Source of the DNA: Planctomycetota bacterium | GTDB taxonomy: Bacteria > Planctomycetota > B15-G4 > SIAN01 | DNA: 64,000 nt | Direction: 5' to 3' | NCBI GenBank assembly: GCA_016795285.1 | Contig: JAEUIC010000029.1 | Span: 133,518 to 197,517, forward strand | Shown: positions 1 through 59,311 of the stretch, in pieces | Numbering within the stretch: the first letter of the stretch is position 1 | Layout of the letters: each line of letters starts with the position of its first letter | Program-made: the position numbers and the translations under genes | The notes under the pieces: model-generated | What the model was told of the DNA's origin: nothing | What the model saw: only the letters and a program-made list of their open reading frames with translations | Database searches by the model: none

Positions 1-2525
1 TCACCCGCGGCCTCGCGCTGCTGCGCGCCGAGCTCGATCGACGCAGCGGCGGCGAGCGCGCCCGCTGGCTCGGCGCCGTCGCCTCGCTGGCAACGAGCGG
101 GCCGCCCGCCGCGCTGGCCACCGGACTCTTCGGAGGAGTGCTCGCAGTGAAGAAGCTCGGGATCGCGGCGGCTCTGCTGGCCGTCGCTGGCGCCGCTTGG
201 TGGGTCACGCGTTCGGACGAGCGGAGCGCGCCGCCGACGTCGCACACCACCGCCACCGCGCCAATCGACGCCCCGCCGCTGCCGATCGACGCGCCGATGG
301 CTGCGCGGACCGAGCTGTTGAGCGCGCCGCCTGCGGCTGCCACGCCGCCGCCGCTCGCCGTCGCGTTCGGGTCGCTCCGCGTGCGCGTGCGCTGGGCCGA
401 TGGCCGGCCCGCCGAAGCGATCACCCTCTTCGCTTGTCCCGAAGCGGCCCCGAATGCGCCGCGCGTCGTGCTGGAGCAGAAGAGCGACGCGCAGGGCGAG
501 ACGCGCTTCGCGGAGCTCTTCGCCGGTCCGGTGCGCCTCGAGGCCGATCGCGGCGTCGAGGTGCGGACCGTCATCGCAGCCGGCGCCGAGAGCACGATCG
601 AGCTCGAACTCGTCGCCGGCGTCGCGGTAGAGGGGCGCGTCGTCGACGAAGCGGGCGCGCCGATCGCCGCTGCCGAGCTGCTGCTGATCTCGCCGCGCCG
701 CGACTGGCTCGCCGCGCGCGTCGTGGCGCACAGCGATGAGCGCGGCGAGTTCGCCGCCGACGAACTGCCGATCGGCCACCACCTGACCGCGCGCACGCCC
801 GGCCGCGTCCCCGCCTTCCTGCAGAAGATCGAGGAGGCACCGCGCGACGCGCCGTTGAAGATGCAGTTCGTGCTCGACTGGCGCGGCATCGCCGTGGCGG
901 GGCGCGTGGTCGATCCCGACGGGCGGCCGGTCTCCGGAGCGCGCATCGCGGCGGGGCGCAACGACGGCCAGACCTACGGCTCGCGCGACGGCAGCGTGCA
1001 GCAGCGCTTCGGCATGCCGGTCACGCGCAGCGACGCCGACGGCCGCTTCGAGCTCACCGGCGTCGAGCACGCGGAGCTCTGCCTCGCGGTGATGGCCGAC
1101 GGTTTCCCGCTCCACTTCGAACAGCTCCCCCATTGGGTCGGCGTGACGAGCTTCTGCGAGGTGCAGCTCGCGCGACCGGCCACGCTGGCCGTCGAGGTGC
1201 GCACGCCGGAGGGGGCGCCGGTTCCAGGCGCGACCGTTGTCGTCGTTGCGCTCGGCGAGCGGACCGCCGAGCGGCTGCCCTTCCCGCTGCCACGCGCTTC
1301 GAGCGATGCAGCCGGCGTCGGCACGCTCGACCTGCTGCCACCTGGAGCCCGGACGATCCGCGTCGAACCGCCGATCGGCTCGTCGTTTCACTCCGTCTCG
1401 TTCACGCTTGCCGGCGATCCGGTGACGCCGACGCGCCACCATGTGACCCTCGCGCGTGACGCCGCGATCGTCGGCCGCGCATTCGAATCCGATGGCACGC
1501 CGGCGACGTGGCTGGAGGTGTGGTGGTACTCGGCATCGAGCGGCCGCAGCCACTCCACCGCCGTCGACACCGAAGGCCGCTTTCGCCTCGAACCGGCCGA
1601 CTCGCCGCCCTACCTCCTAGGACTTCGAGATCCCGCGACCGGCAACGTGCTCCTCGAGCGGGGGGACGTCTCGCCGGGCCCGGAGCTAGTCGAACTGCAC
1701 CTGCTGCCGCCCGCCGCGCTAACGGGAGCCTTCCTCGCCAACGACGCCGAACATGGCGACTACGACGCGGCGCGAGCCCACTTTCGGGACAACTCGGCGC
1801 AACCGCATGCCGCCGGCAAGCCGCTTTGCTTCGCCTTCGATCGCGCCTTCCGTCACGGCGCGAACGCCACGTGGAGCGGCGACAACTTCACGTGCGGCGG
1901 ACTGCCACCCGGCACCTATCGCGTCACAATCCGCGACGACCAGACCGTGCTGTGGCAATCGGAGTGGATCGCGCTGGCCGCCGGCGAGACGCGCGACCTC
2001 GGGACGATCCGCTCGACGAAGCGGCGCGCCGAGGAGCCGGGCGACTTGGCGCTCGCCCTGGCTCCCGCGGACGCGCCGAACGTCTCGGTCTCGCTGCGCA
2101 GCGTCGACTACGACGTCACCGGCTTCGTCACCGGCAGCTCCGGGCTCTACGGAGCGATCTCCCTGCCGCCCGGCCCCTGCTTCCTCGACGTGCGCGCGGA
2201 CGGCTACGCGTCGCAGCTCCTGCCGCTCACCATCGTGTCGGGCGAGACGACGGAGCTTTCGGCGACGCTGCAACCTGGCGTCGCGCGCACGCTCTCCTTC
2301 GTCGGCACGTGGGACGAGCTGTCGGTGACGGTGCGCGATGGCGCCGGCCGCTTGGTCGCAGCGCAGCGACTGACGAGCCTCGATCCGAAGGGTCTCCTGC
2401 TGCTGCTGCCCGATGGCCGCTACGAGCTGTCCGCCGTCAGCGAGCGCGGTGCGCGCGCGGAAGGTCGTTTCGCCATCGAGGGGCTCGCCCCGCAGGACGC
2501 GCCGCTGCGCTTCGAGCTGCGCTGA
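1..2525 (+). CDS. C-terminal part of an ECF-sigma-fused membrane protein (5' end lies upstream of the window). It has one transmembrane helix followed by repeated carboxypeptidase-regulatory-like (CarboxypepD_reg/prealbumin-like) domains.
   Basis: The ORF track starts the gene at 138, but the same frame is open from nt 3. The upstream in-frame peptide (TRGLALLRAELDRRSG...VKKLGIAAALLAVAGAAWWVTRSDE) matches the sigma-region-4/TM junction of the two full-length paralogs (compare ...MKKGLVGAVLLVAAGAGALWWSD in 55901..59311). The downstream part shows repeated G-R-V-V-D-x-x-G-x-P...SD-x-x-G-x-F-x-L units. GC3 is high. Confidence 0.6.
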   Translation, partial: TRGLALLRAELDRRSGGERARWLGAVASLATSGPPAALATGLFGGVLAVKKLGIAAALLAVAGAAWWVTRSDERSAPPTSHTTATAPIDAPPLPIDAPMAARTELLSAPPAAATPPPLAVAFGSLRVRVRWADGRPAEAITLFACPEAAPNAPRVVLEQKSDAQGETRFAELFAGPVRLEADRGVEVRTVIAAGAESTIELELVAGVAVEGRVVDEAGAPIAAAELLLISPRRDWLAARVVAHSDERGEFAADELPIGHHLTARTPGRVPAFLQKIEEAPRDAPLKMQFVLDWRGIAVAGRVVDPDGRPVSGARIAAGRNDGQTYGSRDGSVQQRFGMPVTRSDADGRFELTGVEHAELCLAVMADGFPLHFEQLPHWVGVTSFCEVQLARPATLAVEVRTPEGAPVPGATVVVVALGERTAERLPFPLPRASSDAAGVGTLDLLPPGARTIRVEPPIGSSFHSVSFTLAGDPVTPTRHHVTLARDAAIVGRAFESDGTPATWLEVWWYSASSGRSHSTAVDTEGRFRLEPADSPPYLLGLRDPATGNVLLERGDVSPGPELVELHLLPPAALTGAFLANDAEHGDYDAARAHFRDNSAQPHAAGKPLCFAFDRAFRHGANATWSGDNFTCGGLPPGTYRVTIRDDQTVLWQSEWIALAAGETRDLGTIRSTKRRAEEPGDLALALAPADAPNVSVSLRSVDYDVTGFVTGSSGLYGAISLPPGPCFLDVRADGYASQLLPLTIVSGETTELSATLQPGVARTLSFVGTWDELSVTVRDGAGRLVAAQRLTSLDPKGLLLLLPDGRYELSAVSERGARAEGRFAIEGLAPQDAPLRFELR

Positions 2526-13864: not shown

Positions 13865-13965
13865 CCCACCAGGTGCCGGGGAGTTTCCGTCTCGCCCGGT
13901 GCCGGGGAGTTTCCGTCCGGCCCGGTGGCGGGGAGTTTCCGTCCGGCGCGGTGGCGGGGTTGATT
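13865..13965. repeat. Tandem direct repeat array: three units of about 26 bp (GGTGCCGGGGAGTTTCCGTC...) followed by a variant unit (GGTGGCGGGGTTGATTCTTCC)
   Basis: Read directly from the sequence: caccaGGTGCCGGGGAGTTTCCGTCtcgccc / GGTGCCGGGGAGTTTCCGTCcggccc / GGTGGCGGGGAGTTTCCGTCcggcgc / GGTGGCGGGGTTGATTCTTCCgcg. The array lies in the convergent intergenic region between the VIT-vWA gene and the TonB receptor gene. Confidence 0.85.
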
Positions 13966-14023
13966 CTTCCGCGAGCGGGGACGCGCGTCGGTGACGAGGA
14001 CGCGTCGGAAGAATCAACCCCGC
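13944..14023. repeat. Perfect 22-bp inverted repeat (GGTGGCGGGGTTGATTCTTCCG ... CGGAAGAATCAACCCCGCCACC) enclosing an inner palindrome (GACGCGCGTC / GACGCGTC). A large hairpin could form.
   Basis: Seen directly. The arms are the same motif variant as the two repeats upstream of the DinB-family gene at 20245..20290. Confidence 0.8.
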
Positions 14024-14089
14024 CACCGGTGCGGACCGCCGCGAGCGCACCGTCGGTGGCGCGCTCGCGGCGAGGCGATCAGGAGGCGA

Positions 14090-16207
14090 TCAGAACGTGA
14101 ACTCGAGGCGCAGGTAGAGCTGCCGCGGGGCGCCAGCGACCTTGCCGCCGCCGAAGAAGCCGCCGCGCGAGTGGACCAGCCACTCCTCGTCGAAGAGGTT
14201 GCTGGCACCGAGCGCTGCTCGGATCGTGCGCCCCCCCTCGCGTTCCCACGTCTTCTCGACTTGCGCGTCCCAGATCGTGCGCGACGGGTTGTGGCCGAGG
14301 TTGCCGTTCACGTTCTCGACCGCGGTGTTCGCCTCGTCGGAGAAGGAGTCGCCGACGTAGGTGCCACCCAGCGAGAAGCGCAGCCCGCCCTCCGCGAGGT
14401 AGTGGAAGTTCCACGCCGCCTTGCGCTCCCACGCGTACGGCGTCTCGTTGCCGCGGAACGGCCCTTCGCGCAGCTCCGACTCCTGCAGCGACGCCGAGAC
14501 CATCGCCCCGAAACCGGCGAGCGGCTCCCACATCGCGCCGGCATCGGCGTGCAGCGTGGCGTCGACGCCGTGCGCGACGATGCGCCCGATGTTCTCGTAG
14601 AAGCCGGAGTAGAAGACGCCGACGTCGTCGAAGTCGGTCCGCCACGCTGCCACGGTCCCGTCGATGCCGCCCGGCAGCTCCGCCCGCGTGCCGACCTCGA
14701 ACGAGTCGCCGTGCTCGAAATCGACGTCCTGCGCCGCCGCGCCCGCCGCGAGGTTGAACCCCCACACCTGCGGCGCCCGGAAGCCGCGTTGCCAGTTCGC
14801 GAACAGGGCCCAGTCGTCGCGCACGCGCCAGCTCGCGCTGACGCCCGGCAGCAGCGTGAAGAAGCGGTCGTCGAAGTCGCCGCCAAGCACCTCGTCGTCG
14901 CCGTCCGCGACCGGGATCCACTCGGCGCGCACGCCCGCGGTCAGCTCGAGCCCGTCGAGCGGCTCGAGCGTGTCGTCGACGTGCGCCGAGAACGACGTCA
15001 GGTCGAAGCTCGAGTCCTGCAGCACCGTCGCCGAGCCGCCGCCGAACGGCGTCGAGACGATCTCGTAGTCGGGCAGCCACTCCTGATGGGCGCGCAGTCC
15101 CCAATGGAGGCGATGGCCGCCGGCCGCGGCGAAGCGTCGCTCGCCGCGGATGCCGAGATCGACCCACAGCGAGTCGTCGGTCCAGTCGCGCACCTCGGTC
15201 GGCGCGCCGAACAGCGGGCGGCGCGCGGTGAGCTCGCGATGAGTCTGGCTGAACGCGACGTACGGCTCGATCCACGCCTCGTCGTTGCCGCGATGGTGGA
15301 CGACGTCGAACGCCGCGCGGAACCCGTCGAAGCGGCCCTCGGGCCGGGCGTTGCCGAAGCGATCGGCGGCGAACTCGGCGACGGTGAGGCCGCCCGGCGC
15401 CTGATGGCTGTCGGTGAACCACGAGAAGCGCGTCGCCGTCCACGCATCGGTGCCGTGCTCGCGGCGCAGCTTCACCTCGAGCGACTGCTGGTCGTACGCG
15501 CCGTCCTCGCGGTAGCCCTCGCCGCGCCGATCGCCGAGCGTGACCAGCCAGCCGAGCGCGCGATCGCTGCCGTCGCCGATCGTCGCCACCGTCGACATCG
15601 CATCGAACGAGCCGTAGGTCGACTGCAGCGACGACTCGAACCGGTCGGGGATCGGCCGCGTGATCACGTTGAGCACGCCGCCCACCGTGTTGGGCGAGTA
15701 GCGGACCGCTTGGCCGCCGCGGAGCAGGTCGATCGCGAAGACCTGCTCGGGGAAGAGCGGGAAGAACGAGAGCGCCGTCCAGCCGTACGGCAGCGGATTG
15801 GCCGGAACGCCGTCGATCAGCGGCAGCACGTACTCGGTGAGGCCGTCGTCCGGCAGTCCGTGGATCGAGAAGCTCGGCGCGGCCGCCTCGCCGCCGTTGT
15901 AGGGCCGCGTCGAGAGGGCCGGCAGGTAGAGCAGCAGGTCGTTCAGGTCGCGAGCCCCGATGGCGCGCACCTCCGCGGGACCGAGCACGTCGCGCGAACC
16001 TGGATGGCCGATCGGCACCACCGGCACGCCCGCCTGCCCGACCGAGCCGGTGACGAGCACCGCCGGCAGCTCGAGATCGGGCTTCTTGCCCCCCTCCTTC
16101 GGATCGGGCTCGCGAGCGCTCTCCTGCGCGCGCGCGACCGCTGGCGCGACGACGATCCCGAGCGCGACCCAACGCGACCTGCCCCGCATGCTCATCGGCG
16201 ACTCCAC
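14090..16207 (-). CDS. TonB-dependent outer-membrane receptor
   Basis: Signal peptide, plug-domain motifs, long beta-barrel region, C-terminal ...RLEFTF ending in Phe. 705 aa. Confidence 0.9.
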   Translation of the reverse strand: MESPMSMRGRSRWVALGIVVAPAVARAQESAREPDPKEGGKKPDLELPAVLVTGSVGQAGVPVVPIGHPGSRDVLGPAEVRAIGARDLNDLLLYLPALSTRPYNGGEAAAPSFSIHGLPDDGLTEYVLPLIDGVPANPLPYGWTALSFFPLFPEQVFAIDLLRGGQAVRYSPNTVGGVLNVITRPIPDRFESSLQSTYGSFDAMSTVATIGDGSDRALGWLVTLGDRRGEGYREDGAYDQQSLEVKLRREHGTDAWTATRFSWFTDSHQAPGGLTVAEFAADRFGNARPEGRFDGFRAAFDVVHHRGNDEAWIEPYVAFSQTHRELTARRPLFGAPTEVRDWTDDSLWVDLGIRGERRFAAAGGHRLHWGLRAHQEWLPDYEIVSTPFGGGSATVLQDSSFDLTSFSAHVDDTLEPLDGLELTAGVRAEWIPVADGDDEVLGGDFDDRFFTLLPGVSASWRVRDDWALFANWQRGFRAPQVWGFNLAAGAAAQDVDFEHGDSFEVGTRAELPGGIDGTVAAWRTDFDDVGVFYSGFYENIGRIVAHGVDATLHADAGAMWEPLAGFGAMVSASLQESELREGPFRGNETPYAWERKAAWNFHYLAEGGLRFSLGGTYVGDSFSDEANTAVENVNGNLGHNPSRTIWDAQVEKTWEREGGRTIRAALGASNLFDEEWLVHSRGGFFGGGKVAGAPRQLYLRLEFTF

Positions 16208-16371
16208 GTGCCCCCGTTCGGGGGCCGCGGCGAAGCAAACGAGGCGCCCCGAACGACGCGGCGAAGCGCGCGCAACGCTCGAGTCGCGACGTCATTCCGT
16301 CACCGTCGCGTGACCGCTGCACGAGCAGCGGGAACGACCGCCTGCCCACTGCGCGAGCGCCACCAGCAGCG

Positions 16372-16478
16372 ACCGCGAACGCCGGTGGCGGGGAGTTTCC
16401 ATCCACCCCGGTGGCGGGGAGTTTCCTTCCGGCACGGTGCCGGGGAGTTTCCGTCCGGCAAGGTGGCGGGGTATCTCC
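16372..16478. repeat. Tandem direct repeat array (four units) of the same GGTGSCGGGGAGTTTCC family. It lies about 170 bp upstream of the TonB receptor start.
   Basis: cGGTGGCGGGGAGTTTCCatccacc / cGGTGGCGGGGAGTTTCCttccggca / cGGTGCCGGGGAGTTTCCgtccggcaa / GGTGGCGGGGtatctcc. Confidence 0.85.
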
Positions 16479-16495
16479 ACCACGATCCGATCGCG

Positions 16496-18034
16496 TCACC
16501 AGCGTTCGCGGGTGAGCGGGATGACGATCGTGCGGCGATCGCCGGAGTTCACCGTGAACTCGATGGGAGCGATCGGCTCGAAACCGTCGATCAGTTCGAA
16601 CTCGACCGAGTAGGTGCCTTCAGACCAGAACGGCTGATCGAAGCTGCATGCCGATCCGTCGCGCGATTCGCCGCGCCAGCGAGGTCTCGGCCTCACCGTC
16701 GCCCATGGCAGTGGCACGCGTGTCTCGCCGTCGTGCAGTTCGAACGCGATTCGTGCAATCGCCGGCTCGTCGGGATTCGACCAGTTCCCGCCGCATTCGA
16801 AGCCGTCCCGCGCGGCCTGCGCGAGATCTCCGCTGGCGACCTTGATCCTCGAACACTCGCTGCCCTCAGCGTGACCGGACGCCAGCACGATCGGGCGCAC
16901 TCCTTCGCGCAACCCCGGTTGCCGCACCAATTCCACCGGCCCGACCGGCACGTCGGTCACGCTCGCACGGTTTCCGATGAACTTGACGGGCGCGCTCCGC
17001 CAACCGTGAGTCGCCCGCCCCGATCGCAGCCACACACCGACCCGATCATTTCGCGACGGCATCACCTCCTCACCCACTGCGACGATCTCGACCTCCGTCG
17101 CCGGCCAGAGCCGCACTTCGCGCGCGCCACCGCCGCGCGCATCGATCTCGAGAGTTCGCTCGACGCGACCCGCTGCCTGCACCGTCAACTCGATCTCTCC
17201 CGCCCACCAGTCCGCGATGCCCGCCTGGACCTTGAACCCGCCCGCCTCGGTCCACCACGCGCCGCCATCGATGCACCTCTCGCTGCGCTCCTCCCCACGC
17301 ACGATGCCAAACGCGAACGACCCGCCCTGCCGCACGAACTCCCACGATTCACCCAACGCGTCGAGCGGCACACCGGCTTCCGCGGCCACGACTCGGACGA
17401 AGGTCGCGGGCGGCGCGATCCACCGCAGCTCCGCTTCGCGCTCCTCGGACAGCCGGCGCCAACGAACGTCGAGCGGCAGCACGCGCTCGCCTTCGCTCGT
17501 CGCGAACGCCCGCCACCAGATCTTCGAGCGCGGCAGCTCGGCGAACGCGGCTGGCGGCGTCGCGACGAAGCGATCGCCGTTGACGGGAGGTTGGTGGATG
17601 TGGACTGCGCCGCCCGCCCAGAACTCGACGCGCACCGACGGATCGAGCTCAGGCAGCTTCATCCACTCGGGCACGCGGCGATCGATCGTTCCGTGCACCG
17701 TCGGCAGCGGCTCGGCGGCCGTCGACGGCCGGTCGAGCTCACGCAACACAAGCCCCGTCAGCGAGAGGCTCGCCACGTTCCGATCGGAGCCTCCCGGTTC
17801 GGTCGGCGACACGATCGCGGACGCGGCCTTCGACGACTCGCTCGCGCCCCGCCCACCGCTGCCGCCTTCGGCGAGCACCGCGCGATCGAACCGCAACTCG
17901 GGCATCTCCGGGGAGCACCCCCCAGCGAGCAGCGCCGGCAGCAGCGGCGCCACCATCACTCGCCGAGCCCTGCCCGATCGATCGCCGATCGCCATCGCTC
18001 GCTCCTCGTCGCGGTCGGCAGCGTGCCGATGCAT
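16496..18034 (-). CDS. Hypothetical lipoprotein. The likely true start is about 17956 (MVAPLLPALLAGGC lipobox-like signal).
   Basis: The ORF has high GC3 and varied composition, and the N-terminal signal ends in a Cys. It lies upstream of, and on the same strand as, the TonB receptor gene. Confidence 0.55.
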   Translation of the reverse strand: MHRHAADRDEERAMAIGDRSGRARRVMVAPLLPALLAGGCSPEMPELRFDRAVLAEGGSGGRGASESSKAASAIVSPTEPGGSDRNVASLSLTGLVLRELDRPSTAAEPLPTVHGTIDRRVPEWMKLPELDPSVRVEFWAGGAVHIHQPPVNGDRFVATPPAAFAELPRSKIWWRAFATSEGERVLPLDVRWRRLSEEREAELRWIAPPATFVRVVAAEAGVPLDALGESWEFVRQGGSFAFGIVRGEERSERCIDGGAWWTEAGGFKVQAGIADWWAGEIELTVQAAGRVERTLEIDARGGGAREVRLWPATEVEIVAVGEEVMPSRNDRVGVWLRSGRATHGWRSAPVKFIGNRASVTDVPVGPVELVRQPGLREGVRPIVLASGHAEGSECSRIKVASGDLAQAARDGFECGGNWSNPDEPAIARIAFELHDGETRVPLPWATVRPRPRWRGESRDGSACSFDQPFWSEGTYSVEFELIDGFEPIAPIEFTVNSGDRRTIVIPLTRERW

Positions 18035-18119
18035 CGATCTCAGGAACGGGCGCTCGCCCTCACGGTTCGAGCGAGGCGCCGATGGATCGCGCCTGCCCGC
18101 GCGCTACTTTGCGCGCACC

Positions 18120-19577
<1,458 letters not shown>

Positions 19578-19595
19578 CCGAACGCTCCGCGGCGT

Positions 19596-19640
19596 CCCGA
19601 TCCGGGAGCGTTCCGCCGCCGAGATCCGCACCACGCGGGG
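19596..19640 (+). repeat. REP-like intergenic element (copy 1): GATCCGGGAGCGTTCCGCCGCCGAGATCCGCACC
   Basis: Member of a roughly 35-bp family. Other copies are at 22978..23010, 23052..23086 (inverted), 26645..26700 (variant), 32815..32860 (inverted) and 51318..51352. Confidence 0.8.
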
Positions 19641-19668
19641 CCGCCCATCGGGGTGGCCCCGCGGTCGT
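19638..19668 (+). terminator. GC-rich hairpin (CGCGGGGCC-gcccatcggggt-GGCCCCGCG) downstream of the M20 peptidase gene
   Basis: Perfect 9-bp stem read directly. There is no U-tract, which is common for intrinsic-like terminators in high-GC genomes. Confidence 0.4.
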
Positions 19669-19747
19669 TCCGGGAGGAGCGGCACGGACGACGACGACGA
19701 AGTTCGCGCTGCAACGGGGCCACGGCCTCGCCGCGCCCCCCCTCTTC

Positions 19748-20233
19748 TCACCCGCGCGGCTTCTCGAGCGCCCCGCTCCGCACGGCGTGGATGTAGTCGA
19801 TCAGCGGCGGCGCGATGCCGGTCGCGCGCAGTTCGGCGAGGAGCTGCGCGCGGTGGTGGGTGCCGTGCAGGGCGACGTGGTGGAGCACGTCGGCGACGAC
19901 GCTCTCGAACCGTTCGCCCTTGCTGTTGACGTAGGCGAAGGTCGAGGCGAGCGCGGCGTCCGGGGTCGCTGCTGACTGCGCGCGCCACGCGCCGCGCAAC
20001 GGCGCGAGCTCGGCGACGCACTGCTCGAGCGACCACGCCGGCCAGACCGGCAGCGGCGCCGACTCGCCGCGCAATCGCGAGAGCCACAGCCGCGACGCGC
20101 CGATCACGTGGGCGAGCAGCTTCACCGAGTGCGGCGGCGCGCGCTCCGCTGCCGCCGCGAGGTGGAGCACCACCTCGCGATTCGCCCAATCGTCGTAGTC
20201 GAACAGCCGCTCGAGCGCCGCGGGAAAGGCCAT
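19748..20233 (-). CDS. DinB/YfiT-like (DinB_2 family) metal-dependent hydrolase-like protein
   Basis: 161 aa. Conserved His residues in a helical bundle (WANREVVLHLAAA..., HHVALHGTHHRAQL) are typical of DinB_2. Confidence 0.7.
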   Translation of the reverse strand: MAFPAALERLFDYDDWANREVVLHLAAAAERAPPHSVKLLAHVIGASRLWLSRLRGESAPLPVWPAWSLEQCVAELAPLRGAWRAQSAATPDAALASTFAYVNSKGERFESVVADVLHHVALHGTHHRAQLLAELRATGIAPPLIDYIHAVRSGALEKPRG

Positions 20234-20244
20234 CGATCACTCCT

Positions 20245-20290
20245 CCGGTGGCGGGGTCGATTCTTCCGGCCTGGTGGCGGGGTCGATTCT
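20245..20290. repeat. Two tandem copies of GGTGGCGGGGTCGATTCTTCC immediately upstream of the DinB-family gene's RBS and start codon
   Basis: Read in the gene's orientation: GGAAGAATCGACCCCGCCACC-aggcc-GGAAGAATCGACCCCGCCACC-GGAGGAGtgatcgATG. Confidence 0.85.
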
Positions 20291-20333
20291 TCCGCGCCGC
20301 GCGCGCCGCCTCCGCCGCTCACCGCCCCGCCGC

Positions 20334-21107
20334 TCACCGTGCCGTCGGCTGCCCCGCCGCTGCCGCTTCGGCGACGAAGAGCGCGACGCAGCGGATCTCG
20401 TCCTCGCTGAGCGTCCCGGCGAACGCCTTCATCGTGCGCGCCTCCATCCCCTCCTCGATCAGCTCCGCGAGATCGCCGACGTCGCGCGACTCGACTTGCG
20501 GCCCCGCGCCATGCAGCCGCACGAACCCTTGGTCGAGCTTCCCCTCGCCGCGCACGCCGTGGCACGGCGCGCACGCCTGCGCGTAGAGCGCCGCCTCGGG
20601 CGCCGCGAAGAGCGCCTCGACGTCGCGAGCCGGCGCCGTTCGCGGCAGCGCGATCAGCCGCTCGCAGAACGCGGCGAGCGACTCGATCTGCGCCTCGCTC
20701 AGCGCTCCCTTGAAGGGCGGCATCGCGACCGGCGAGCTCTGCCCGGCGCCATGCCGCGTGCCCGGCGCGAACTCGCCCTTCGTCGCACCCGGCACGCGCA
20801 CGCCATGGCGCACCACGGTCGCGACCGCCTCCGGCCCGCGCCCCCAGATCCACTCGTCGTCGCCGAGGTCGGGATAGCCCGGCCGCCCGCGCCGATCGGG
20901 GCCGTGGCAGAGCAGGCACTCCGACTCGAAGATCGCGCCGCCCTGCTCGAGCGCGAAGGCGCGCAGCGTCGGGTCGCTCGCGAGCTGCTCGAAGCTCGCC
21001 GTCGCGAATCCGGGCGGCGGCGGGAAGCTGCGGCACTGCACCAGCGCGCCCAGAAGCGCCGCACCGGCCACGCTCGCGACCATCGCCCCGCCGAATCGTT
21101 GACGCAT
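20334..21107 (-). CDS. Dihaem c-type cytochrome
   Basis: Signal peptide and two CxxCH motifs (CLLCH, CAPCH). 257 aa. Confidence 0.8.
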   Translation of the reverse strand: MRQRFGGAMVASVAGAALLGALVQCRSFPPPPGFATASFEQLASDPTLRAFALEQGGAIFESECLLCHGPDRRGRPGYPDLGDDEWIWGRGPEAVATVVRHGVRVPGATKGEFAPGTRHGAGQSSPVAMPPFKGALSEAQIESLAAFCERLIALPRTAPARDVEALFAAPEAALYAQACAPCHGVRGEGKLDQGFVRLHGAGPQVESRDVGDLAELIEEGMEARTMKAFAGTLSEDEIRCVALFVAEAAAAGQPTAR

Positions 21108-23096: not shown

Positions 23097-26000
23097 TTAG
23101 CGGCGGCTCACGAGTTCCGTGACGGAGCCGGCGACGATCTCGGCGCTCGCCTCGCGGACGGCGCCGTCGGGCGAGGTGATGACGATTCGAATGGGGCCGG
23201 GCGGCAGCGCGGGGAGTCGCCAGCGGCCGCCCTGCACCATCAGATGCGCCCACGGCACCGCACCGTCGAGCCACGCGCCGTTCGAACCGACTCGCGGCAG
23301 CGGCGCGCCGTGCAGGTCCTCGACGACGACCTCGGCGCCGAGCTCCGGCTGGCCGTCGCCACCGAGCAGCAGCAGCGACAGCGCGCCGCACGGCGGTGGC
23401 GCGAGCGTCCGCTCGATCCGCCCTGACTCGTTCGCGCCGATCGAGAGGCGCGTCGCCGCCGGCATCGGCAGCTCGCGAGCGGTCCAGAACGTCGGCGCCA
23501 CCAGCAGCTCGAGCGCCCCTTCGGGCAGCTCGTGGACGATCAGCCGCCCCGCTTCGATCGTGTGGCGCGCCAGGTAGGGAGCGAGGCCGTCGGCGGCGAC
23601 GGTGACGCCCCACGGAGCGCGGCCAGAGGAGTCAATCGCGCTCGGCGGCGGGAGCGTCAACGCCAGCTCGCGCGTCGAGCGGCGCAGCGTGACGGTGCTC
23701 TCGCCGGGCAGCGACTCGACGAAGCTCGCATCGACCTCCTGCGGCACGAAGCCGGTCGCGTGGACCAGCACACTCCAACGACCGGGAACGAGCGCGCGCG
23801 TCGTGAAGCGGCCGTCGGCGTCGCTGGTCGTGCGGCGCGGATCACTGCTCTCGAGCGACGGCACCTGCCACCGCCGCGCCGGCGGCAGCGCGACGCTCCC
23901 GTCGGCCGCGAAGACGAGGCCTGGCCAGCCGAGCACTTCAACGCTGGCGCCTGCGATCGGCGCGCCGCTCTCGTGATCGATCACGCGACCCGTCAACGGA
24001 CCGAACGCCAGATCGAGGTCGATCGACGGCTCCTCGCCGGGCGCGAAGCTCGGCAGCTCGCCCACGGAACCGTGGACGCTCTCGTCGCTCGTCCCGTTCA
24101 CCGTCCAACGCAACGGCCGGCCGCTCGGCACCGCGAGGTCGAAGAAGCCCTCGTCATCGAGCGGCTGCGACGACCCCGCGGCGCGCACCGGCTCGACGTC
24201 GGTGAGGGCGAGGAGTCCGCCGCGCAACGGCTCGCCGTTCACGCGCAGCGAGCCGGTGAAGCGGGCGCGCTGCGACTCGGGGAGCACGTGGAATTCGAGC
24301 GTGGCGGACTCGCCTTCGCGCAGCACGATCTCGCGCGCCGAAGGGCCGGCGAGGAGCAGGTCGCTCGGGATCATCGCCTGCACGACGTACTCGCCGGGCA
24401 GCAGTCGCTCGAAGCGGTACGAATCGTCGAGGTCGGCGGTGCGACCTCCCGAGCTGCTGGTGCGCGGTTGGAAGAAAAGGGAGCGCAACGGGACGGCCTC
24501 ACCAGGGAGCGGCGCCACCACCCGCTGCTGGAACAGGAACTTCGGCCGCATCGGCGACTTCGGTGCGCCGATCAGCCGCACCTGCAAGCTCGCGCCGCGC
24601 TGCAGCGCAACCACGGGCGGACCCGACGATGCCGCGAGCGGCACGTCGAGCTGGCGTGGCGCGAACTCGGCGTGCGCCACGCGCAGCGTCGCCCACTCGC
24701 CGCGCGCCGGCAGCTCGAAGAAGCCGGCGGCGTCGCTGGTTGCGCGAGCGTCGCTCTTCGGTGCCTTCGCGGGATCGCCGTCGAGCGGATACGAGGCCGC
24801 CTGCCCCGACACGAGCAGCACGACGGCGTTCGCGATCGGCGCCCCATCACTCGCCGCGACCACGCGACCGCGCAGCACGCCGACCGCGGCGATCGCGACG
24901 TCGATCGCGAGGTCGGCCCCGCACGGCAGCTCGACGAACTTCTCGACGGCCGCGCGTCCCGACACCTCGACGCGCACGTTCAAGCGGACCGGTGCTTCGA
25001 TGCTGGAGAAGCGCCAGCTCGCCGGCTCGTCGGGGTCGCGCTCGACCGAGAGCTGCCGGCCGCCACCGACGATCCCGCGCGTCGGCGGATTGGCGAGCCA
25101 CGGCGCGAACGCCTCGACCGTCACGCTCGGCTCGACGCCGTCGGGCAGCGCGCCGCTCACGACGACCCGTCCGCGCGCCGGGCGACCGAGCGCCAGCCGA
25201 TGCGTCTCGCCGGGATCGACCGCGAAGACGCTCACCGCGAACCCCTCCCGCTCCACGCGTACGCCGATCGCGCCATGACTGCGGCCTCCCGACGCCCCTT
25301 CGTCCGTCGGGAGGCCGGTCATGCGGAACGTGCCGTCCGCTCCGCTGGTCGCCGACTGCACGGCGCCGACTTCGAGCAGCGGCAGCTCGCTCGGCAGCGG
25401 CTCGGGCAGGGCCCAGTTGGCCCAGTCGTCGCAAGCGAGCAGCGCCGCACCCGCGACCGGCACCCCCGTCTCGTCGACGACGATGCCGGCCACGGTGCCG
25501 CCGGCGCGGACGATCAGCGGCGGCAGCTCGAGACCGTCGACGACCTTCGACGGCTCGCGTGGCTCGGCGGCCAGGCGACCGGGCAGGCCCGCCAACAATT
25601 GCAGCAGCGCGTCGACATGGAGCCCGGCGAGCTCGAAGCGGCCGTCGCTGTCGCTGTGCTGATCGACGTGCCAGACCATCTGCGACGCATCGGCGCCGAC
25701 GAGCTCGAGCGCCATGATCCGCGCGCCCGGCAACGGAGCGCCGCTCTCGTCGACGACGCGGCCGCGGACGGTGGCGAGCGCGGCGGAACTCTTAGCGGCG
25801 AGCGGCGCCGCGAGAGTGGCGAGGGCGGCAGCGCTGGCGCCGTTCGGGTCGCCGCTCGCTCCAGATGCCGCCGCGTCCGCGGCCGCGGGCGCGCCGATCG
25901 CCACCGCCGGAGCGGGCTGCTCGTCGGGGCGCGTCCACCGCCACGCGCCGATCAACGCACCGCCGATCAACAGCGCCGCCGCCACCTTCGTCGCCAGCGC

Positions 26001-26594
26001 GGCGCCGCCGCTCGCGATCGGCTCGAGGCCCCACGCGAAGCTCGCCAACCACTCGCTACGGCCGCCCGGATGGAGCGCGTCGAGTTTCGCGCGCAGCTGC
26101 TCGAGGGCGCGTCGCAATCGGGTGCGCACGGTCGGCTCGGGCGCCCCTTCACCGGCGGCGATCTGCGCGACGGAGCGCTCCTCGAAGAAGCGGAGCACGA
26201 TCACGCGTCGGTAGGGCTCGTCGAGTTCGGCGACCGCGTTCGCGAGCAGCCGCAGCGTCTCCGCGCGCTCGAGCGCGTCCTCGGTGGTCTCCACCTCCGA
26301 GCGGGCGACGGCCGCCTCGCGACGAGTGCGCCGCGCCGCGCTGCGCTGCGAGCGGAACGCGAGGTTGCGGACGACCGCGGCGAGCCACGAGCGGCCGTCC
26401 CGCAGGTGCGCCGGCGGCTGCGTCAGCGCGACGGCCGCCGCCTCCTGGACGGCATCGGCGGCCGCGTCGTCGTCGCGCAGCAGCTGGCGCGCGAGCGCGT
26501 GGAGGGAGCGGCGATGCTGCTCGAAGAGAGCCGCCATCGCGCTCGCCGGATCCGCTGCGCCCATCGCATCGATCGCATCCATCGCCTGCTCCAC
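23097..26594 (-). CDS. ECF sigma factor fused to a transmembrane helix and a large extracytoplasmic domain (about 900 aa) of carboxypeptidase-regulatory-like repeats
   Basis: N-terminus has sigma-70 region 2 (DAVQEAAAV...) and region 4 HTH (YRRVIVLRFFEERSVAQIAAGEGAPEPTVRTRLRRALEQLRA). This is followed by a hydrophobic segment (AAALLIGGALIGAWRW), then repeated GRVVDxxGxPxxGA...SDxDGxFxL units. 1165 aa. Confidence 0.8.
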   Translation of the reverse strand: MEQAMDAIDAMGAADPASAMAALFEQHRRSLHALARQLLRDDDAAADAVQEAAAVALTQPPAHLRDGRSWLAAVVRNLAFRSQRSAARRTRREAAVARSEVETTEDALERAETLRLLANAVAELDEPYRRVIVLRFFEERSVAQIAAGEGAPEPTVRTRLRRALEQLRAKLDALHPGGRSEWLASFAWGLEPIASGGAALATKVAAALLIGGALIGAWRWTRPDEQPAPAVAIGAPAAADAAASGASGDPNGASAAALATLAAPLAAKSSAALATVRGRVVDESGAPLPGARIMALELVGADASQMVWHVDQHSDSDGRFELAGLHVDALLQLLAGLPGRLAAEPREPSKVVDGLELPPLIVRAGGTVAGIVVDETGVPVAGAALLACDDWANWALPEPLPSELPLLEVGAVQSATSGADGTFRMTGLPTDEGASGGRSHGAIGVRVEREGFAVSVFAVDPGETHRLALGRPARGRVVVSGALPDGVEPSVTVEAFAPWLANPPTRGIVGGGRQLSVERDPDEPASWRFSSIEAPVRLNVRVEVSGRAAVEKFVELPCGADLAIDVAIAAVGVLRGRVVAASDGAPIANAVVLLVSGQAASYPLDGDPAKAPKSDARATSDAAGFFELPARGEWATLRVAHAEFAPRQLDVPLAASSGPPVVALQRGASLQVRLIGAPKSPMRPKFLFQQRVVAPLPGEAVPLRSLFFQPRTSSSGGRTADLDDSYRFERLLPGEYVVQAMIPSDLLLAGPSAREIVLREGESATLEFHVLPESQRARFTGSLRVNGEPLRGGLLALTDVEPVRAAGSSQPLDDEGFFDLAVPSGRPLRWTVNGTSDESVHGSVGELPSFAPGEEPSIDLDLAFGPLTGRVIDHESGAPIAGASVEVLGWPGLVFAADGSVALPPARRWQVPSLESSDPRRTTSDADGRFTTRALVPGRWSVLVHATGFVPQEVDASFVESLPGESTVTLRRSTRELALTLPPPSAIDSSGRAPWGVTVAADGLAPYLARHTIEAGRLIVHELPEGALELLVAPTFWTARELPMPAATRLSIGANESGRIERTLAPPPCGALSLLLLGGDGQPELGAEVVVEDLHGAPLPRVGSNGAWLDGAVPWAHLMVQGGRWRLPALPPGPIRIVITSPDGAVREASAEIVAGSVTELVSRR

Positions 26595-39804: not shown

Positions 39805-41219
39805 TCACTCCGGCACCTTCCAGCGGCCGCCCTTGTCGGGGCCGATGCGTTCCAGGCGGCCTGCCTCGCGCAGCTTGCGGACGGCCCGCTCGATGGCACG
39901 CAGTGACTTGCCGAGCTGCGCCGCCACTTCGGGCAACGACAAGCCCGGGTCCGACCGGAGCAGCGACCGGATCGCTTCGGGCGTTTTCACCGGCGTTTTC
40001 ACCGGCGTTTTCACCGGCGCCTTCGGGGCCTTCCTCTGGGGCGCCGCCGCCAACAGGGAGAAGGTCACGACCACCGCGCGATCGCGAATCGACACGACCG
40101 GCGGCGTCAGGCCGCGCTCCTCCATCAGTCGCGCGATCTTGAGCGTGCCGCGGCCCCACGTCTCGATGATCCCGCGCCGATAGAAGGTGCGCGCGATCAT
40201 GGGGTTCCACGGCTTCGACTCGTGTTCGCGGAAGAGCGCCTCGGGCGTCAGGCCGAAGTGCAGCTCGCCGATCGAGATGATCTCGAGCCGATCGTCGTAG
40301 AGCGCGACGCTCACCGAGCCACCGCCGATCGCGTAGTCGCGATGCACGAAGGCGTTGGCGAGCGCCTCGCGCAACGCCTCCACCGGCAAGAGCGGGGTGT
40401 CCTCGCGCTCCATCCGGTCCGGAACGATGCGCCCCCGCACGGGCAACGACTCGATCAGGAAGCGCTCCGCACGGCGCATCAAGGCGAAGGCGTTGCCGTG
40501 GAACTGGCGGTGGTCGAGGAACTCGTCACGCGTCGTCCCTCGGAATCGCGCCACCTTGAGCAGCAGTTGCGGGAACTCGGGCAGGGGCACCTCCTCCGAA
40601 CAGAAGAGCGCCACTGCCGCCCGCGACACCCGATCGCCTTCGACCAGCAGCCCGAGTCCGCGCAGGATCTCGAGCGGCTCACGCGTCCCCGGATCATCGA
40701 TCCGGCCGCGACGGATCGCCTCCTCCAACGTGAGCACCAACTCGCGCCGATCGAGCCGCGTGATGTCGAATCCCGTGGCCGGTCGATTCTCCCAGCGCTC
40801 GGTCGCGTGCATCTCCTCCAGCAGCAACCGCTGGAAGGTCTCGCGCGGCATGACGCGAGTCGTGTTCAGCACCCGTTCGTACGCGACCCCACGGAAGGCG
40901 ATCGGAGCGCGAGGACTGTGCTGGGCGGAGAGCAGCAGCACCTCGCGCCCTCCGCCGATCGCGACGCGTTCCACTGTCGGAAAGAGCGGCGGCTCGAATC
41001 GCTGGACCTCCTGCGGAGCTCTTCGAGGGTGCGTTCGTTGACGATCTGCGCGACGACCTTCCCGGCTGGCGTCACGCCGATCACCACGCGCCCGCCTTCG
41101 CCGTTGGCGAACGCGCACACGGTGCGAAAGGCTCGCTCCTTCTCCGCCGTCGACTTCTTGAACTCGAGCGTCGCCGACTCGCCGGCGGCGGCCAAGTCCG
41201 CGAGTTGATCGGGATTCAC
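39805..41219 (-). pseudogene. Schlafen/AlbA_2-like domain plus HATPase_c_4-like ATP-binding domain plus C-terminal wHTH protein (often annotated as 'RecG-like / putative transcriptional regulator'), interrupted by a frameshift near 41001..41023
   Basis: The N-terminal AlbA_2 signature (ESATLEFKKS...ERAFRTVCAFANGEGGRVVIGVTPAGKVVAQIVNERTLEE) is in ORF 40866..41219. The rest (QEVQRFEPPLFPTVERVAIGGG...IAFRGVAYERV...HATPase-like...wHTH) is in ORF 39805..41118, in a different frame. The switch occurs within gaagagctccgcaggaggtccag. A KAPKAPVKTPVKTPVKTP repeat is present. Confidence 0.6.
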
Positions 41220-43036: not shown

Positions 43037-44515
43037 CTACTCCTCGAACTCGACCTGCCCGCGCCGCCACTCGGGCGGCAGCGGCTCGGTGAGGGGGACG
43101 ATCCACGGCGCGGGGGCGAGCGAGCGCTCCACGGCGGCGAGGTCGACGTTCGGATCGATCAGCGGCTGCGCATCGCGGCCGTTCAGCGAGCAGTCGACGA
43201 TGGCGCGGACTTGCGGGCGGCGCGCGGCGCCGGTGGCGGGATCGACGACCGTGTAGCGGCGCGCGAGGTGGTGGGCGTACTGCAGCACCATCTCGGGGCG
43301 ATCGCCCATCTTCTGCGCCTGCCAGTCGGCGAGCTCGGCGCGCGGGTCGACGATTCGCCGCTCGCCGGTGACGGGATCGGTGACGACGAAGTGGGCGCTC
43401 GACGTCTTGCTGCGCAGCTTCATGTGCCACGCGAAGAGGTGCCCCTCCTCGGTCCAGCTGACATTGCCGGGGTAGAGGAAGTGGCGCAGCGGGAAGAGCA
43501 GTTGGTAGGCGAGCCAGAGCGCCACGAGCGCGAGCGTGGCGCGCGCGAGCCGCGGCGGCGCGGCGGTGGCGAACGCGGCGAGCGGCCGCTCGACCGTCGT
43601 CTCGCCCTCGCGTCGCGCGAGCGCCTGGAAGACCCCCGAGTCGTAGCCGAACAGCGCGCGCGCCTCCGCCTGCTCCTGCCGCTGCCAGCCGCCGCGCCAG
43701 CGCGCGAGCCAGCGGCTCGGCCAATCGGGCGCGAAGAAGAGCGTCGTCGCGGCGATCGCCATCCACGGGAAGATGCCGATGTCGAAGAGGCAGGCGTTCA
43801 GCAGGTGGAAGCAGCAGAGCGCCGCGAACATCGCCACGCGCGTGCGCCGCCAGCAGAGGAGCGGCACCGCCAGCAGGTCGAGCAGCAGCCCCGACCAGCT
43901 CATGAACCACGGCGTCGCCGGATGGAGCAGCAGCGGGCCGATCAGCGGCAGCTCGCCGCGCCCCTTGAGCCACTGGCGCAACGGCTCGCCCTGCAGCCAG
44001 TCGCCGTTCACCTTCGCCAGCGCCGCGTAGCCGTAGACGATCAGCAGTTGCGCGCGCAGCAGGAAGAGCGCGAGGGACGGCGCCGGCCGGCGACCGCGCA
44101 GCGCCGCGCGCAGCGACCACTCCCCATCGGTCGGCACCCACGCCAGCAAGAGCAGCAGCAGGAGCACCAGATAGAAGTGGTTCAGGTAGCGCGCCTGCTC
44201 GAGCAGGAAGACCCAGCCGAAGCCGACGAAGAAGAGCGCCGCTGCGGTGCGCGTCCACCAGCCGACGGCGATCAGCGCCGCCAAGACGCCAAGCGCCGCG
44301 AACAGCGCCTGCAACCCCTCGAGCGACGGCCGCTCGACCCACTCGAAGCCGAAGTAGCGGAAGTGGAACGGCGGCGCGACGTAGTGCGCCTCGATCCAGC
44401 CGGCCGAGAAGAAGCGCGTCACCTCCCACAGCAGGATCGCGCCGAACGCGATGCGGAAGAAGGCGAGCGACGCGGCCGGGATCGGCGCGGCCAGCAACCG
44501 GCGTAGTCGTTCCAT
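43037..44515 (-). CDS. HTTM-domain (vitamin K-dependent gamma-carboxylase-like) integral membrane protein
   Basis: N-terminal HTTM signature (ASLAFFRIAFGAILLWEVTRFF...) and multiple TMs. Start at MERLRRLL; the upstream 25 codons in the ORF track lie within a tandem duplication. Confidence 0.7.
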   Translation of the reverse strand: MERLRRLLAAPIPAASLAFFRIAFGAILLWEVTRFFSAGWIEAHYVAPPFHFRYFGFEWVERPSLEGLQALFAALGVLAALIAVGWWTRTAAALFFVGFGWVFLLEQARYLNHFYLVLLLLLLLAWVPTDGEWSLRAALRGRRPAPSLALFLLRAQLLIVYGYAALAKVNGDWLQGEPLRQWLKGRGELPLIGPLLLHPATPWFMSWSGLLLDLLAVPLLCWRRTRVAMFAALCCFHLLNACLFDIGIFPWMAIAATTLFFAPDWPSRWLARWRGGWQRQEQAEARALFGYDSGVFQALARREGETTVERPLAAFATAAPPRLARATLALVALWLAYQLLFPLRHFLYPGNVSWTEEGHLFAWHMKLRSKTSSAHFVVTDPVTGERRIVDPRAELADWQAQKMGDRPEMVLQYAHHLARRYTVVDPATGAARRPQVRAIVDCSLNGRDAQPLIDPNVDLAAVERSLAPAPWIVPLTEPLPPEWRRGQVEFEE

Positions 44516-44593
44516 CGAGCGGACCCATCCGCGGCCGCCGTCGTCGGCGACCGCCACATCTCCGCGGCCGCCGTCGTCGGCGACGGCCATATC

Positions 44594-58900: not shown

Positions 58901-59311
58901 GCGATAGGGCTCCGCCAGCCGATCGAGCTCGCGCTGGACGATCCCGTCGAGTTCTCGCAGTCCCGCCGCCGCGACGACCCCGCCTCCCGATGCGACCGGT
59001 TCGAGCGCCGGCAGCGCTTCCAGATCGCCCGCACGCACGACCCGACGACGTGCGTTGCGGGAGTGGTTGGCGAGGATGCCGAGCAGCCACGGCAGGACAG
59101 GTCGACTCGCGTCGAAGCGACTCCACCGCTCGATCGCGGTGACGAAGGTCTGCTGGACCAAGTCCTCGGCACTCGCGAGGTCGCGCGCCACGTGGCAAGC
59201 GACTCGCAGCAGGGTGGGGGCCGTGCGATCGAACAGCTCCGCCATCGCAGCGGATGCGCCACTGCGGCGAGCGTCGACGAACAGCTCCTCGAGCGATCGA
59301 TCACCAGCCAT
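55901..59311 (-). CDS. ECF sigma factor / TM / extracytoplasmic carboxypeptidase-regulatory-like repeat fusion protein (paralog of 23097..26594)
   Basis: Region 2 (AEDLVQQTFVTAIERWSRFD). Region 4 HTH (YREVAILTLRHQLKPAEIARALGRSPGSVRVQLHRALEQLRQRL). TM (MKKGLVGAVLLVAAGAGALWW). Then an exported domain of about 850 aa containing GRVVDxxTGAPLAGA...ADGRFEL units. 1136 aa. Confidence 0.8.
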   Translation of the reverse strand: MAGDRSLEELFVDARRSGASAAMAELFDRTAPTLLRVACHVARDLASAEDLVQQTFVTAIERWSRFDASRPVLPWLLGILANHSRNARRRVVRAGDLEALPALEPVASGGGVVAAAGLRELDGIVQRELDRLAEPYREVAILTLRHQLKPAEIARALGRSPGSVRVQLHRALEQLRQRLPRSCSMASLVAPSLLSELGRGLAAVRASVVDAASEAAVGVASGVAAGSVITIGSWMAMKKGLVGAVLLVAAGAGALWWSDSNGKRAEPVDSPITPSTPTEAVARLDDEVAPSGGTVSPTALREASQHAPRPPDPSAAAMVAEIRGDVIEATTSRPLPGVTIEFFAPLQLTLDDATRRFGDYAHGNLRCVGQLHFAAGWPRIVLPLPENAWRDGALVEVCAPPDPASVPLARAQTDAEGRFALSLSRSNGVLVVSHADFERQVVVVPIESGNDASRSATSAGKGAPEVSIALERLGEIEGYLVDEAGEPVREPVRLRLMASSAERTPNASTTPFEQRRARRAGPWLIDTDEGGAFAASIGAACVQVDCVTPGFEIVERREERSGRTWHSSPQLRPDEGGAPALLVVRRMPVLTVLDAKSGAPIESFSLLGTSMESGSVAYFGRVHAPRGRLELESGPRPTGYGAPRMGPLRISVWTKAHAPQSVEIAPSDRRASCTVELEAGATPEVRGHVLKRGVPVGGAAVSLNAYYPLSWRPDDLQRIDEVASGSDGAFLLHGPPGKYVVKVVEGAAPPCLRLVELPLALPLRIDLAGGGTIEVVVRDPAGEPRSEAKVCLRSPSQQERAEYTDAAGVARFEGLEVGLHLVTLNGTRDEHVPLPQALERVVVVEGKAAAIALTAPPAGPIRLRITADGVTDFTGWRAREGMYVVSEWHDLGGEGAIDADAANWTRIEVAAPDGFHWRLPLPLATLMSGVVEIPISEVGYRGRVVDRLTGAPLAGAIVRASVADSETNFHVAAGADGRFELQNLDPAVHTLSVRRDPKSADPDAPAWFSPSQPAAPRGREVVLRVPDVRGDRVEGMARRVFRGRVVHRGAGAPAVNASLMLTARFSDDDGEWGVAVEGAHARSGPDGSYEFVAVRAPSYHLWAQADDASGVATTLREVWIDGGGSGEVESRDITFE

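Follow-up and report, generated by a model that had tools for sequence, protein, structure and literature searches.

REP-like repeat arrays mark the breakpoints of gain or loss of a TonB-dependent receptor gene in an uncultured high-GC bacterial lineage

The 64-kb stretch of DNA analysed here, which we refer to as the window, contains a gene for a TonB-dependent receptor, the product of which has a Plug and a beta-barrel domain, with a gene for a 2,930-residue VIT/VWA protein convergent to its 3' end and a gene for a predicted lipoprotein on its 5' side (Table 1). Comparison with homologues indicates that the receptor is more likely to start at ATG 16195 than at GTG 16207: a homologue with 98% identity is 701 residues long, and MBL8842963.1 matches the window protein at 100% identity. 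Beyond the lipoprotein gene, the M20 peptidase and DinB-like genes replace the minus-strand ORFs 18060-18833 and 18834-20240, which GC3 frame plots and Pfam matches identify as spurious high-GC artefacts, so that no long minus-strand operon ends in the receptor gene. The lipoprotein gene has a GC3 of ~0.82, compared with 0.93-0.98 in its neighbours; its product has only four homologues in a collection of 5.8 billion proteins (100%, 87%, 87%, and 45% identity), and the gene is present at the VIT/VWA locus of some relatives and absent from that of others. The GC content of the receptor segment (0.72) matches that of the window (0.73). The host is labelled 'Planctomycetes bacterium' at NCBI (locus tags JNL90_); by named homologues, the M20 peptidase is nearest to Myxococcota (65-69% identity) and the receptor to Planctomycetota (~50%), and the taxonomic placement of the source MAG, as judged from such matches, looks uncertain.

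Table 1. Genes and repeat features at and around the receptor locus (window positions)
Feature	Position	Strand	Basis
Array A1, three head-to-tail 26-bp A units (GGTGSCGGGGAGTTTCCGTCYSGCSC)	13872..13949	+	TRF, core search
B unit 13950-13971 (+) and inverted copy B' 14006-14027 (-)	13950..14036		inverted-repeat search and DNA fold
GC-rich hairpin, 12-bp stem, directly 3' of receptor stop	14037..14072	.	sequence, inverted-repeat search
TonB-dependent receptor gene, 701 aa, Plug and beta-barrel	14090..16195	-	domain search, homologues
Unique 188-nt region upstream of receptor, inside indel	16196..16383	-	sequence
Array A2, three head-to-tail A units, orientation as in A1	16384..16461	+	TRF, core search
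Divergent terminal unit of A2 (GGTGGCGGGGTATCTCCACCACGATCCGATCGCG), abuts lipoprotein stop codon	16462..16495	+	alignment with L240 array
Predicted lipoprotein gene, 499 aa, no Pfam match, JNL90_15705	16496..17995	-	homologues
M20 peptidase gene	18120-19577	+	GC3 frame plot, Pfam
DinB-like gene, 163 aa	19748-20240	-	GC3 frame plot, Pfam
Array A3, two head-to-tail B units (GGTGGCGGGGTCGATTCTTCCG + 4 nt), 26 bp apart	20247..20298	+	sequence search
Cytochrome c gene	20334-21107	-	domain search

The hairpin that follows the receptor stop codon is probably a terminator region common to the two convergent genes. The 3' end/UTR of the receptor gene also carries a small VNTR, an 11-nt tandem repeat (GAGGCGATCAG, 14072-14093) that overlaps the stop codon and has two copies in the window and three in a strain with a 98%-identical receptor (L231; loci outside the window are given L numbers). 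On the 5' side of the gene, the unique 188-nt region includes GTCAC/GTGAC palindromes and a hairpin, GCCCCCgaacGGGGGC, just before the ribosome-binding site, and it is probably here that the real receptor promoter/operator sits. The palindromes (16270-16320) read GTCACGCGAC...GGTGACGGAATGACGTCGCGAC in the window and GTCACGTGAC in the close strain (L231 85-125), and GT(T/A)AC repeats also lie upstream of receptor orthologues with 58-60% identity (L233 1150-1220; L234 8900-8970). Palindromes of the GTCAC/GTGAC type could, on this pattern, be the real operator.

Elsewhere in the window, two minus-strand genes (23100-26594 and 55904-59311) encode proteins in which an N-terminal ECF sigma part (Sigma70_r2/r4) is fused to multiple CarboxypepD_reg repeats; in a third related large protein (138-2522, plus strand) the sigma part is missing or lost within the window, and a 902-residue relative is syntenic in L241. 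A perfect 12-nt tandem repeat (GGCGTTTTCACC, 3.3 copies, 100% matches, 39980-40019) lies inside an ORF with HATPase_c_4/HTH domains (39808-41118). The gene at 43040-44590 encodes an HTTM domain (E = 1.5e-72) together with a vitamin-K-dependent gamma-carboxylase lumenal domain (E = 6.5e-42), an unusual combination for bacteria, and adjoins methyltransferase and DUF4357 genes.

Tandem Repeats Finder (TRF) detects arrays on both sides of the receptor gene, A1 at 13872-13959 (period 26, 3.4 copies, 93% matches, score 141) and A2 at 16383-16471 (period 26, 3.4 copies, 87% matches, score 129), and the core GGGGAGTTTCC has six exact matches in the 64 kb, three in each array and all on the plus strand. 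With one mismatch allowed, 0.59 core matches are expected, and the observed count was reached in 0 of 100 shuffles; the 21-mer consensus with up to three mismatches matches the same six sites (0.00 expected), and the 10-nt head GGTGSCGGGG has 12 matches in the window against 0.74 expected. The preliminary description of this DNA had placed four units about 170 bp upstream of a TonB-dependent receptor starting at 16207, with another array of the same family past the 3' end of its gene. The receptor family, the upstream array, and the presence of arrays on both sides are all upheld, A1 and A2 having the same orientation and 88% identity across 89 nt, with a longest common exact stretch of 25 nt. 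The details of A2 required revision: its full extent is 16384-16495, with full 26-bp units (GGTGSCGGGGAGTTTCCRTCCRSCNN) at 16384, 16410, and 16436, but the fourth unit, at 16462, has only a 10-nt head (GGTGGCGGGGTATCTCCACC...) in common with them and, with the start at ATG 16195, the array is 188 nt upstream of the receptor gene.

Array A1 starts 10 nt past the stop codon of the VIT/VWA gene, occupies the 3'-3' spacer between that gene and the receptor gene, and closes with a variant, or B, unit (GGTGGCGGGGTTGATTCTTCCG), with which it spans 13872-13971. This B unit and its inverted copy B' form an inverted repeat with 31-nt arms and a 34-nt loop (13941-14036), for which the predicted DNA fold has a free energy of -44.9 kcal/mol (z = -7.08). 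Array A2 occupies the spacer between the lipoprotein stop codon and the receptor gene, and A3, 3.8 kb off, follows the cytochrome c stop codon and precedes the ribosome-binding site of the DinB-like gene. In total, the 64 kb of source genome in the window contain 12 units at three sites, and nhmmer profiles of the A and B units detected no further or degenerate copies elsewhere in the window. The three sites fall within 6.4 kb of the 64 kb (P ~0.03 under random placement), a clustering that is explicable only by local spread or by the recent history of the region, and for which a purely random scatter across the genome does not account.

A and B units have the same layout, i.e. a 5-nt head (GGTGG or GGTGC), a 17-nt hairpin in which CGG and CCG enclose an apical part, and a linker of ~4 nt, and as read from the sequences they differ only in the apical part, of which there are at least two types (A, GGAGTTTCCRT; B, GGTYGATTCTT). 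The head is GTGG in 14 of the 23 A units and in all B units, and GTGC in the remaining nine A units. A single consensus A unit folds as TGCCGGGGA(GTT)TCC(GT)CCGGCA; single units folded as DNA give modest values (dG -4 to -7 kcal/mol, z -0.4 to -3.2), and in the best folds of single units head positions 4-5 are paired rather than free. In the proposed register, 85.9% of cells are paired across the 23 A units, and sliding the register gives no more than 71%. Of the stem pairs, only 5-23 varies (G-C in eight units, C-G in seven, other combinations in eight), and the observed covariation was reached by 32 of 500 shuffles. The palindrome is thus a property of the consensus, and covariation is weak. 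Whole arrays, as DNA or as RNA, fold little better than shuffled sequences (z -1 to -2; z -0.4 to -2.3 for the RNA). At two independent sites (window 20234-20260 and L120 2603-2645) the end of a B unit (...CCCCGCCACC) abuts a GGAGGAG/GAGGAGG ribosome-binding site 6-12 nt before a start codon; the B unit may be part of the 5' UTR of these two downstream genes.

The units are not specific to the receptor, and instead form a dispersed family. When a metagenome collection was scanned with a 17-mer, about 110 of 120 loci were single chance matches, and true family members were found only on contigs of one related metagenome project, SXGT01. The SXGT01 contigs carry three tandem units after an acyl-CoA dehydrogenase gene, two A units with a partial unit and a B unit beyond a FliL-like gene and before an unknown gene, an inverted 2+2 doublet beside an SIS-CBS gene, two tandem units between convergent sulfatase and MetE-like genes, two direct units and one inverted unit before a ferritin-like gene, and one single unit; none of the genes flanking these units encodes a TonB receptor. 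All three window sites and those in L120, L164, L175, L191, L212, and L240 are intergenic, and five of them lie between convergent genes (A1, L120 site 1, L175, L212, and L240). The orientation of units relative to the adjoining genes varies across sites. Orientation alternates only in B/B', L164, and L212, whereas A1, A2, and A3 are strictly head-to-tail. In L120 the FliL-like gene is bracketed by inverted arrays (1541-1618 and 2525-2627) that have in common a near-identical 52-bp two-unit block, linkers included, which suggests, as far as sequence comparison can tell, that multi-unit blocks are copied as a whole.

Searches in other collections returned no further members of the family. The two-head pattern GGTGSCGGGG-N16-GGTGSCGGGG is too loose for genome contigs, its hits being chance matches in GC-rich actinobacteria, none with the core; in viral contigs the A core had only single chance matches and the B core had no match, and plasmids gave no match to the units. 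In the metagenome scan, a single match in L136 lies inside a coding region and was set aside as probably due to chance; that in L155 falls within the last 62 nt of an ORF. The family has so far been seen in two related lineages only. In the strain with the 98%-identical receptor, A2 is kept upstream of the receptor gene, and two independent Logan contigs run from within A2 to the head of the B' unit and stop there, contig breaks inside arrays being as expected for multi-copy repeats. The receptor orthologues with 58-60% identity, which adjoin a TonB gene, have no units.

Relatives of the locus were found via the lipoprotein (87% identity), namely L239 (Logan SRR32051694) and L240 (GCA_005773305.1), and they reveal that three allelic states exist at one junction. 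The spacer between the VIT and lipoprotein stop codons is 9 nt in L239 (CTGCCGGCG), with no units. In L240 it is 97 nt and holds a single array of two A units and a terminal unit, GGTGGCGAGGCATCTCCACCACGATCCGATCGCG. The corresponding spacer in the window is 2,634 nt and comprises A1, the B doublet, the hairpin, the receptor gene, its 188-nt upstream region, and A2. The receptor gene is present at this locus in the window lineage only, the VIT/VWA and lipoprotein genes of L239 and L240 being convergent without it. The L240 terminal unit is orthologous to window positions 16462-16495, and the L240 array corresponds to the distal part of A2. A predicted recombinant made from the head of A1 unit 1 and the tail of A2 unit 2 is colinear with the L240 array, has an equal number of units, and is ~91% identical to it, a value that matches the divergence of the flanks; at the protein level the lineages have 91-92.5% identity in the C-terminal part of the VIT protein and 84-87% in the lipoprotein. 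The arrays therefore mark the breakpoints of a gain or loss, of ~2.5 kb, that includes the receptor gene.

Other loci were reached via M20 peptidase relatives with 91% (L235), 85% (L236), and 76% identity, in which the VIT/VWA gene is followed directly by the M20 gene, without the lipoprotein and receptor genes. In L235 and L236 the spacer between the DinB-like and cytochrome c genes is 17 and 34 nt, respectively, compared with 93 nt in the window, and A3 is absent. No units occur in the 12-21 kb available from each of L235-L238, and nhmmer scans of L233-L242 with the A and B profiles found no copies except those in L240. No target-site duplication is apparent at the L239/L240 or A3 junctions.

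The units resemble the repetitive extragenic palindromes (REPs) described by Nunvar et al. 2010 (PMC2817692) and Di Nocera et al. 2013 (PMC3733652) in architecture and distribution, and by this analogy their membership of that class is putative. REPs have GT(A/G)G heads, imperfect palindromes, tandem head-tail layouts, and a bias to convergent spacers, and those headed by GGTGG/GTGG include Smal3 of Stenotrophomonas maltophilia (GGTGGGTGCCGACCGTTGGTCGGCAC) and Pflu2 of Pseudomonas fluorescens (GTGGCGAGGGAGCTTGCTCCCGCT) (PMC2817692, PMC3733652). The units at issue here are likewise G+C-rich imperfect palindromes of 22-26 bp behind a short head, GGTGG in most of them, are dimorphic, and form a lineage-specific family; the A units fall within the REP dimensions of a 20-40 bp unit with a 5-13 bp stem. 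They are extragenic, with a bias to spacers between convergent genes, and occur as singles, head-tail tandems, inverted pairs, and clusters. They differ from REPs in that ~40% of the A units have a GTGC head, in that their stems are short and bulged, and in that strict 26-bp head-to-tail arrays dominate rather than head-head dimers. Further, no RAYT is known for the host lineage (no Y1_Tnp domain was found among the scanned window proteins), and copies were counted in 64 kb and short contigs. REPs number tens to hundreds per genome, with a cognate RAYT (Y1 transposase) gene flanked by inverted REPs; that the present units are multi-copy has indirect support from the several SXGT01 contigs and from the contigs that break inside arrays. 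The family is REP-like and previously undescribed, in a poorly studied uncultured high-GC lineage.

Several more specific likenesses can be drawn. As with the GTAG-1 repeat arrays that flank EPS gene clusters in Thauera sp. MZ1T (PMC3733652), short-stem REP-type units here stand in tandem immediately beside particular genes; the authors of that work speculate on a role in directing or modulating expression, whereas at the present locus the comparison of lineages places indel breakpoints at the arrays. In the B/B' pair (13941-14036), and also in the L164 doublet, two inverted units form one long hairpin, as in REPINs (Bertels & Rainey 2011, PMC3116915); A1 and A2, however, are direct repeats rather than inverted doublets, and mobility by a RAYT would here be only putative. 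Regular alternation of orientation, as in BIMEs, is not seen in A1, A2, and A3, which are strictly head-to-tail, and the arrays are direct repeats, unlike the terminal inverted repeats of MITEs, with no sign of the target-site duplication that MITEs have.

CRISPR arrays have repeats of 23-47 bp, unique spacers of 21-72 bp, and associated cas genes. The conserved blocks here, of 17-22 bp, are only 4-9 nt apart, no Cas domains were found among the scanned window proteins, and the best CRISPR direct-repeat match in Rfam scored 17 bits, the gathering score being 39. Also considered were a CsrA-type GGA sponge, a tRNA T-arm origin of the B unit, MIRU-like translational coupling, and integron attC sites, which were set aside because orientation is inconsistent, partner genes are absent, or dimensions do not match.

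How might a family of small dispersed repeats have come to flank a receptor gene that is absent from sister lineages? Precedents exist: genes and integrons between direct copies of the NFM2-MITE have been lost or moved by homologous recombination, and BIME-associated recombination is known in Escherichia coli, with REP/BIME clusters being known substrates for exchange (PMC3184786). In these systems, as here, small direct non-coding repeats flank cargo and would supply homology for excision and integration, although the homology at the present locus is that of 26-bp units, the longest exact match being 25 nt, rather than that of a 439-bp repeat. The reading that we prefer, with a probability of roughly two in three, is that the units are REP-like and dispersed and that the arrays are the breakpoints at which the receptor gene was gained or lost, most likely via inter-array recombination. 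On this reading, the arrays at this locus do not serve the receptor, and its flanking is best explained by recombination at the arrays, which would act as portable homology.

Two routes may be envisaged. A segment comprising the receptor gene and an array could have entered a resident array by a single crossover, which would leave arrays in direct repeat on both sides; alternatively, recombination between A1 and A2 could have deleted the receptor gene in a sister lineage, which would leave one hybrid array. The two arrays that flank the receptor are the halves, or the recombining partners, of the array that stands alone at this site in the sister lineage. Because the distances among the three lineages are nearly equal, an insertion into a resident array is indistinguishable from a deletion by exchange between A1 and A2, and the event may have run in either direction. 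The enzymology may have been RecA-type recombination or the work of a hairpin-specific enzyme. Any effects of the hairpins on transcripts, such as insulation or stabilisation of the upstream lipoprotein mRNA, would be secondary.

Unlikely, but the best of the alternatives, is that the array-flanked receptor is a true mobile cassette whose unit hairpins are recognised by a dedicated enzyme, e.g. a Y1 HUH enzyme (IS200/IS605 or RAYT) acting in trans. IS200/IS605 elements have subterminal hairpins with the same orientation at both ends, and the direct orientation of the arrays at the ends of a segment that is present or absent among close lineages fits such an element (PATE-like, with cargo), as do hairpin-forming units with a conserved 5' head like that of RAYT-bound REPs. 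Small arrays are themselves present or absent with nothing else changed (A3; L239 compared with L240), and the L120 FliL-like gene is also array-bracketed, with its near-identical 52-bp doublet. The L120 arrays are inverted, however, not direct, the scanned window proteins include no transposase, integrase, recombinase, or Y1_Tnp domain, and no target-site signature is seen. As for a donor copy, none is known; the receptor next in similarity is 62% identical. The L240 site, although 'empty' of the receptor, retains an array, as would be expected of homologous exchange more than of a clean excision or insertion. The suggestion in the preliminary description that the arrays are the terminal repeats of a mobilised gene cassette holds in part: the receptor with its arrays is a presence/absence unit among sister lineages (flanking genes ~87-92% identical), which have no units (L239) or a single array (L240) where the window has array, receptor, and array, as the comparison of loci proposed there has revealed, but the arrays are drawn from a dispersed family rather than being dedicated ends, and no recombinase was found among the scanned window proteins. 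Slightly less probable again is a general form of the idea, in which a hairpin-specific recombinase, Y1/RAYT-like or other, would move array-flanked chromosomal genes with resident arrays as landing pads; if true, this would be a REP-based gene-cassette system in an uncultured high-GC lineage.

We regard as improbable, somewhat more so than either form of mobility, a primary role at the RNA level, in which the units would be terminators, insulators, 3'-end stabilisers, or GGA-motif protein sponges kept by selection. Such functions have been proposed for REPs in the literature; in favour here are the placement of the units in 3' UTRs or between cistrons, the B doublet, which forms a very stable hairpin past the 3' ends of two convergent genes, and, from the sequence, the G-T pairs of the B-unit stem, which would pair only as G-U in plus-strand RNA. 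The inconsistent orientation of the units relative to transcription across sites argues against this role, as does the near absence of RNA folding above that of shuffled arrays. Rfam scans with gathering thresholds and with permissive settings gave no match near the gathering score for the arrays, and a role in RNA would leave the presence/absence polymorphism unexplained.

The preliminary description had also raised the possibility that the arrays are regulatory iterons, for example for an iron- or ligand-responsive regulator or a neighbouring ECF-fusion sigma factor, with a GGAA(A)C element resembling an ECF -35 box. ECF promoters typically have GGAAC at -35 and CGT at -10, 16-17 nt apart. 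That A2 lies upstream of the receptor gene and is conserved in the 98%-identical strain, that conservation of the 10-nt head exceeds the needs of a hairpin alone, and that ECF sigma fusion genes are present in the window are the points in favour of operators, iterons, or ECF-type promoter elements controlling the receptor. We nevertheless consider such control very improbable, since units in either orientation lie 3' of, or at convergent junctions between, unrelated genes, receptor orthologues with 58-60% identity lack them, L240 has a single array at the site and no receptor, the 26-bp period would put successive sites on opposite helix faces, CGT follows GGAAAC after only 13 nt in the gene-proximal unit, no sigma-70-like promoter was detected, and the ECF-fusion genes are 7 kb and 40 kb away rather than neighbouring.

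The overall results provide an unusually clean natural series at a single junction, i.e. an empty site, a single array, and an array-gene-array arrangement, and they remove as wrong a tempting annotation of the repeats as iron- or ECF-responsive iterons. They reveal how very small repeats between genes can mark, and probably mediate, the acquisition or loss of an accessory gene for an outer-membrane transporter. Since such arrays break short-read assemblies, the accessory genes that they flank may go missing or be misplaced in MAGs.
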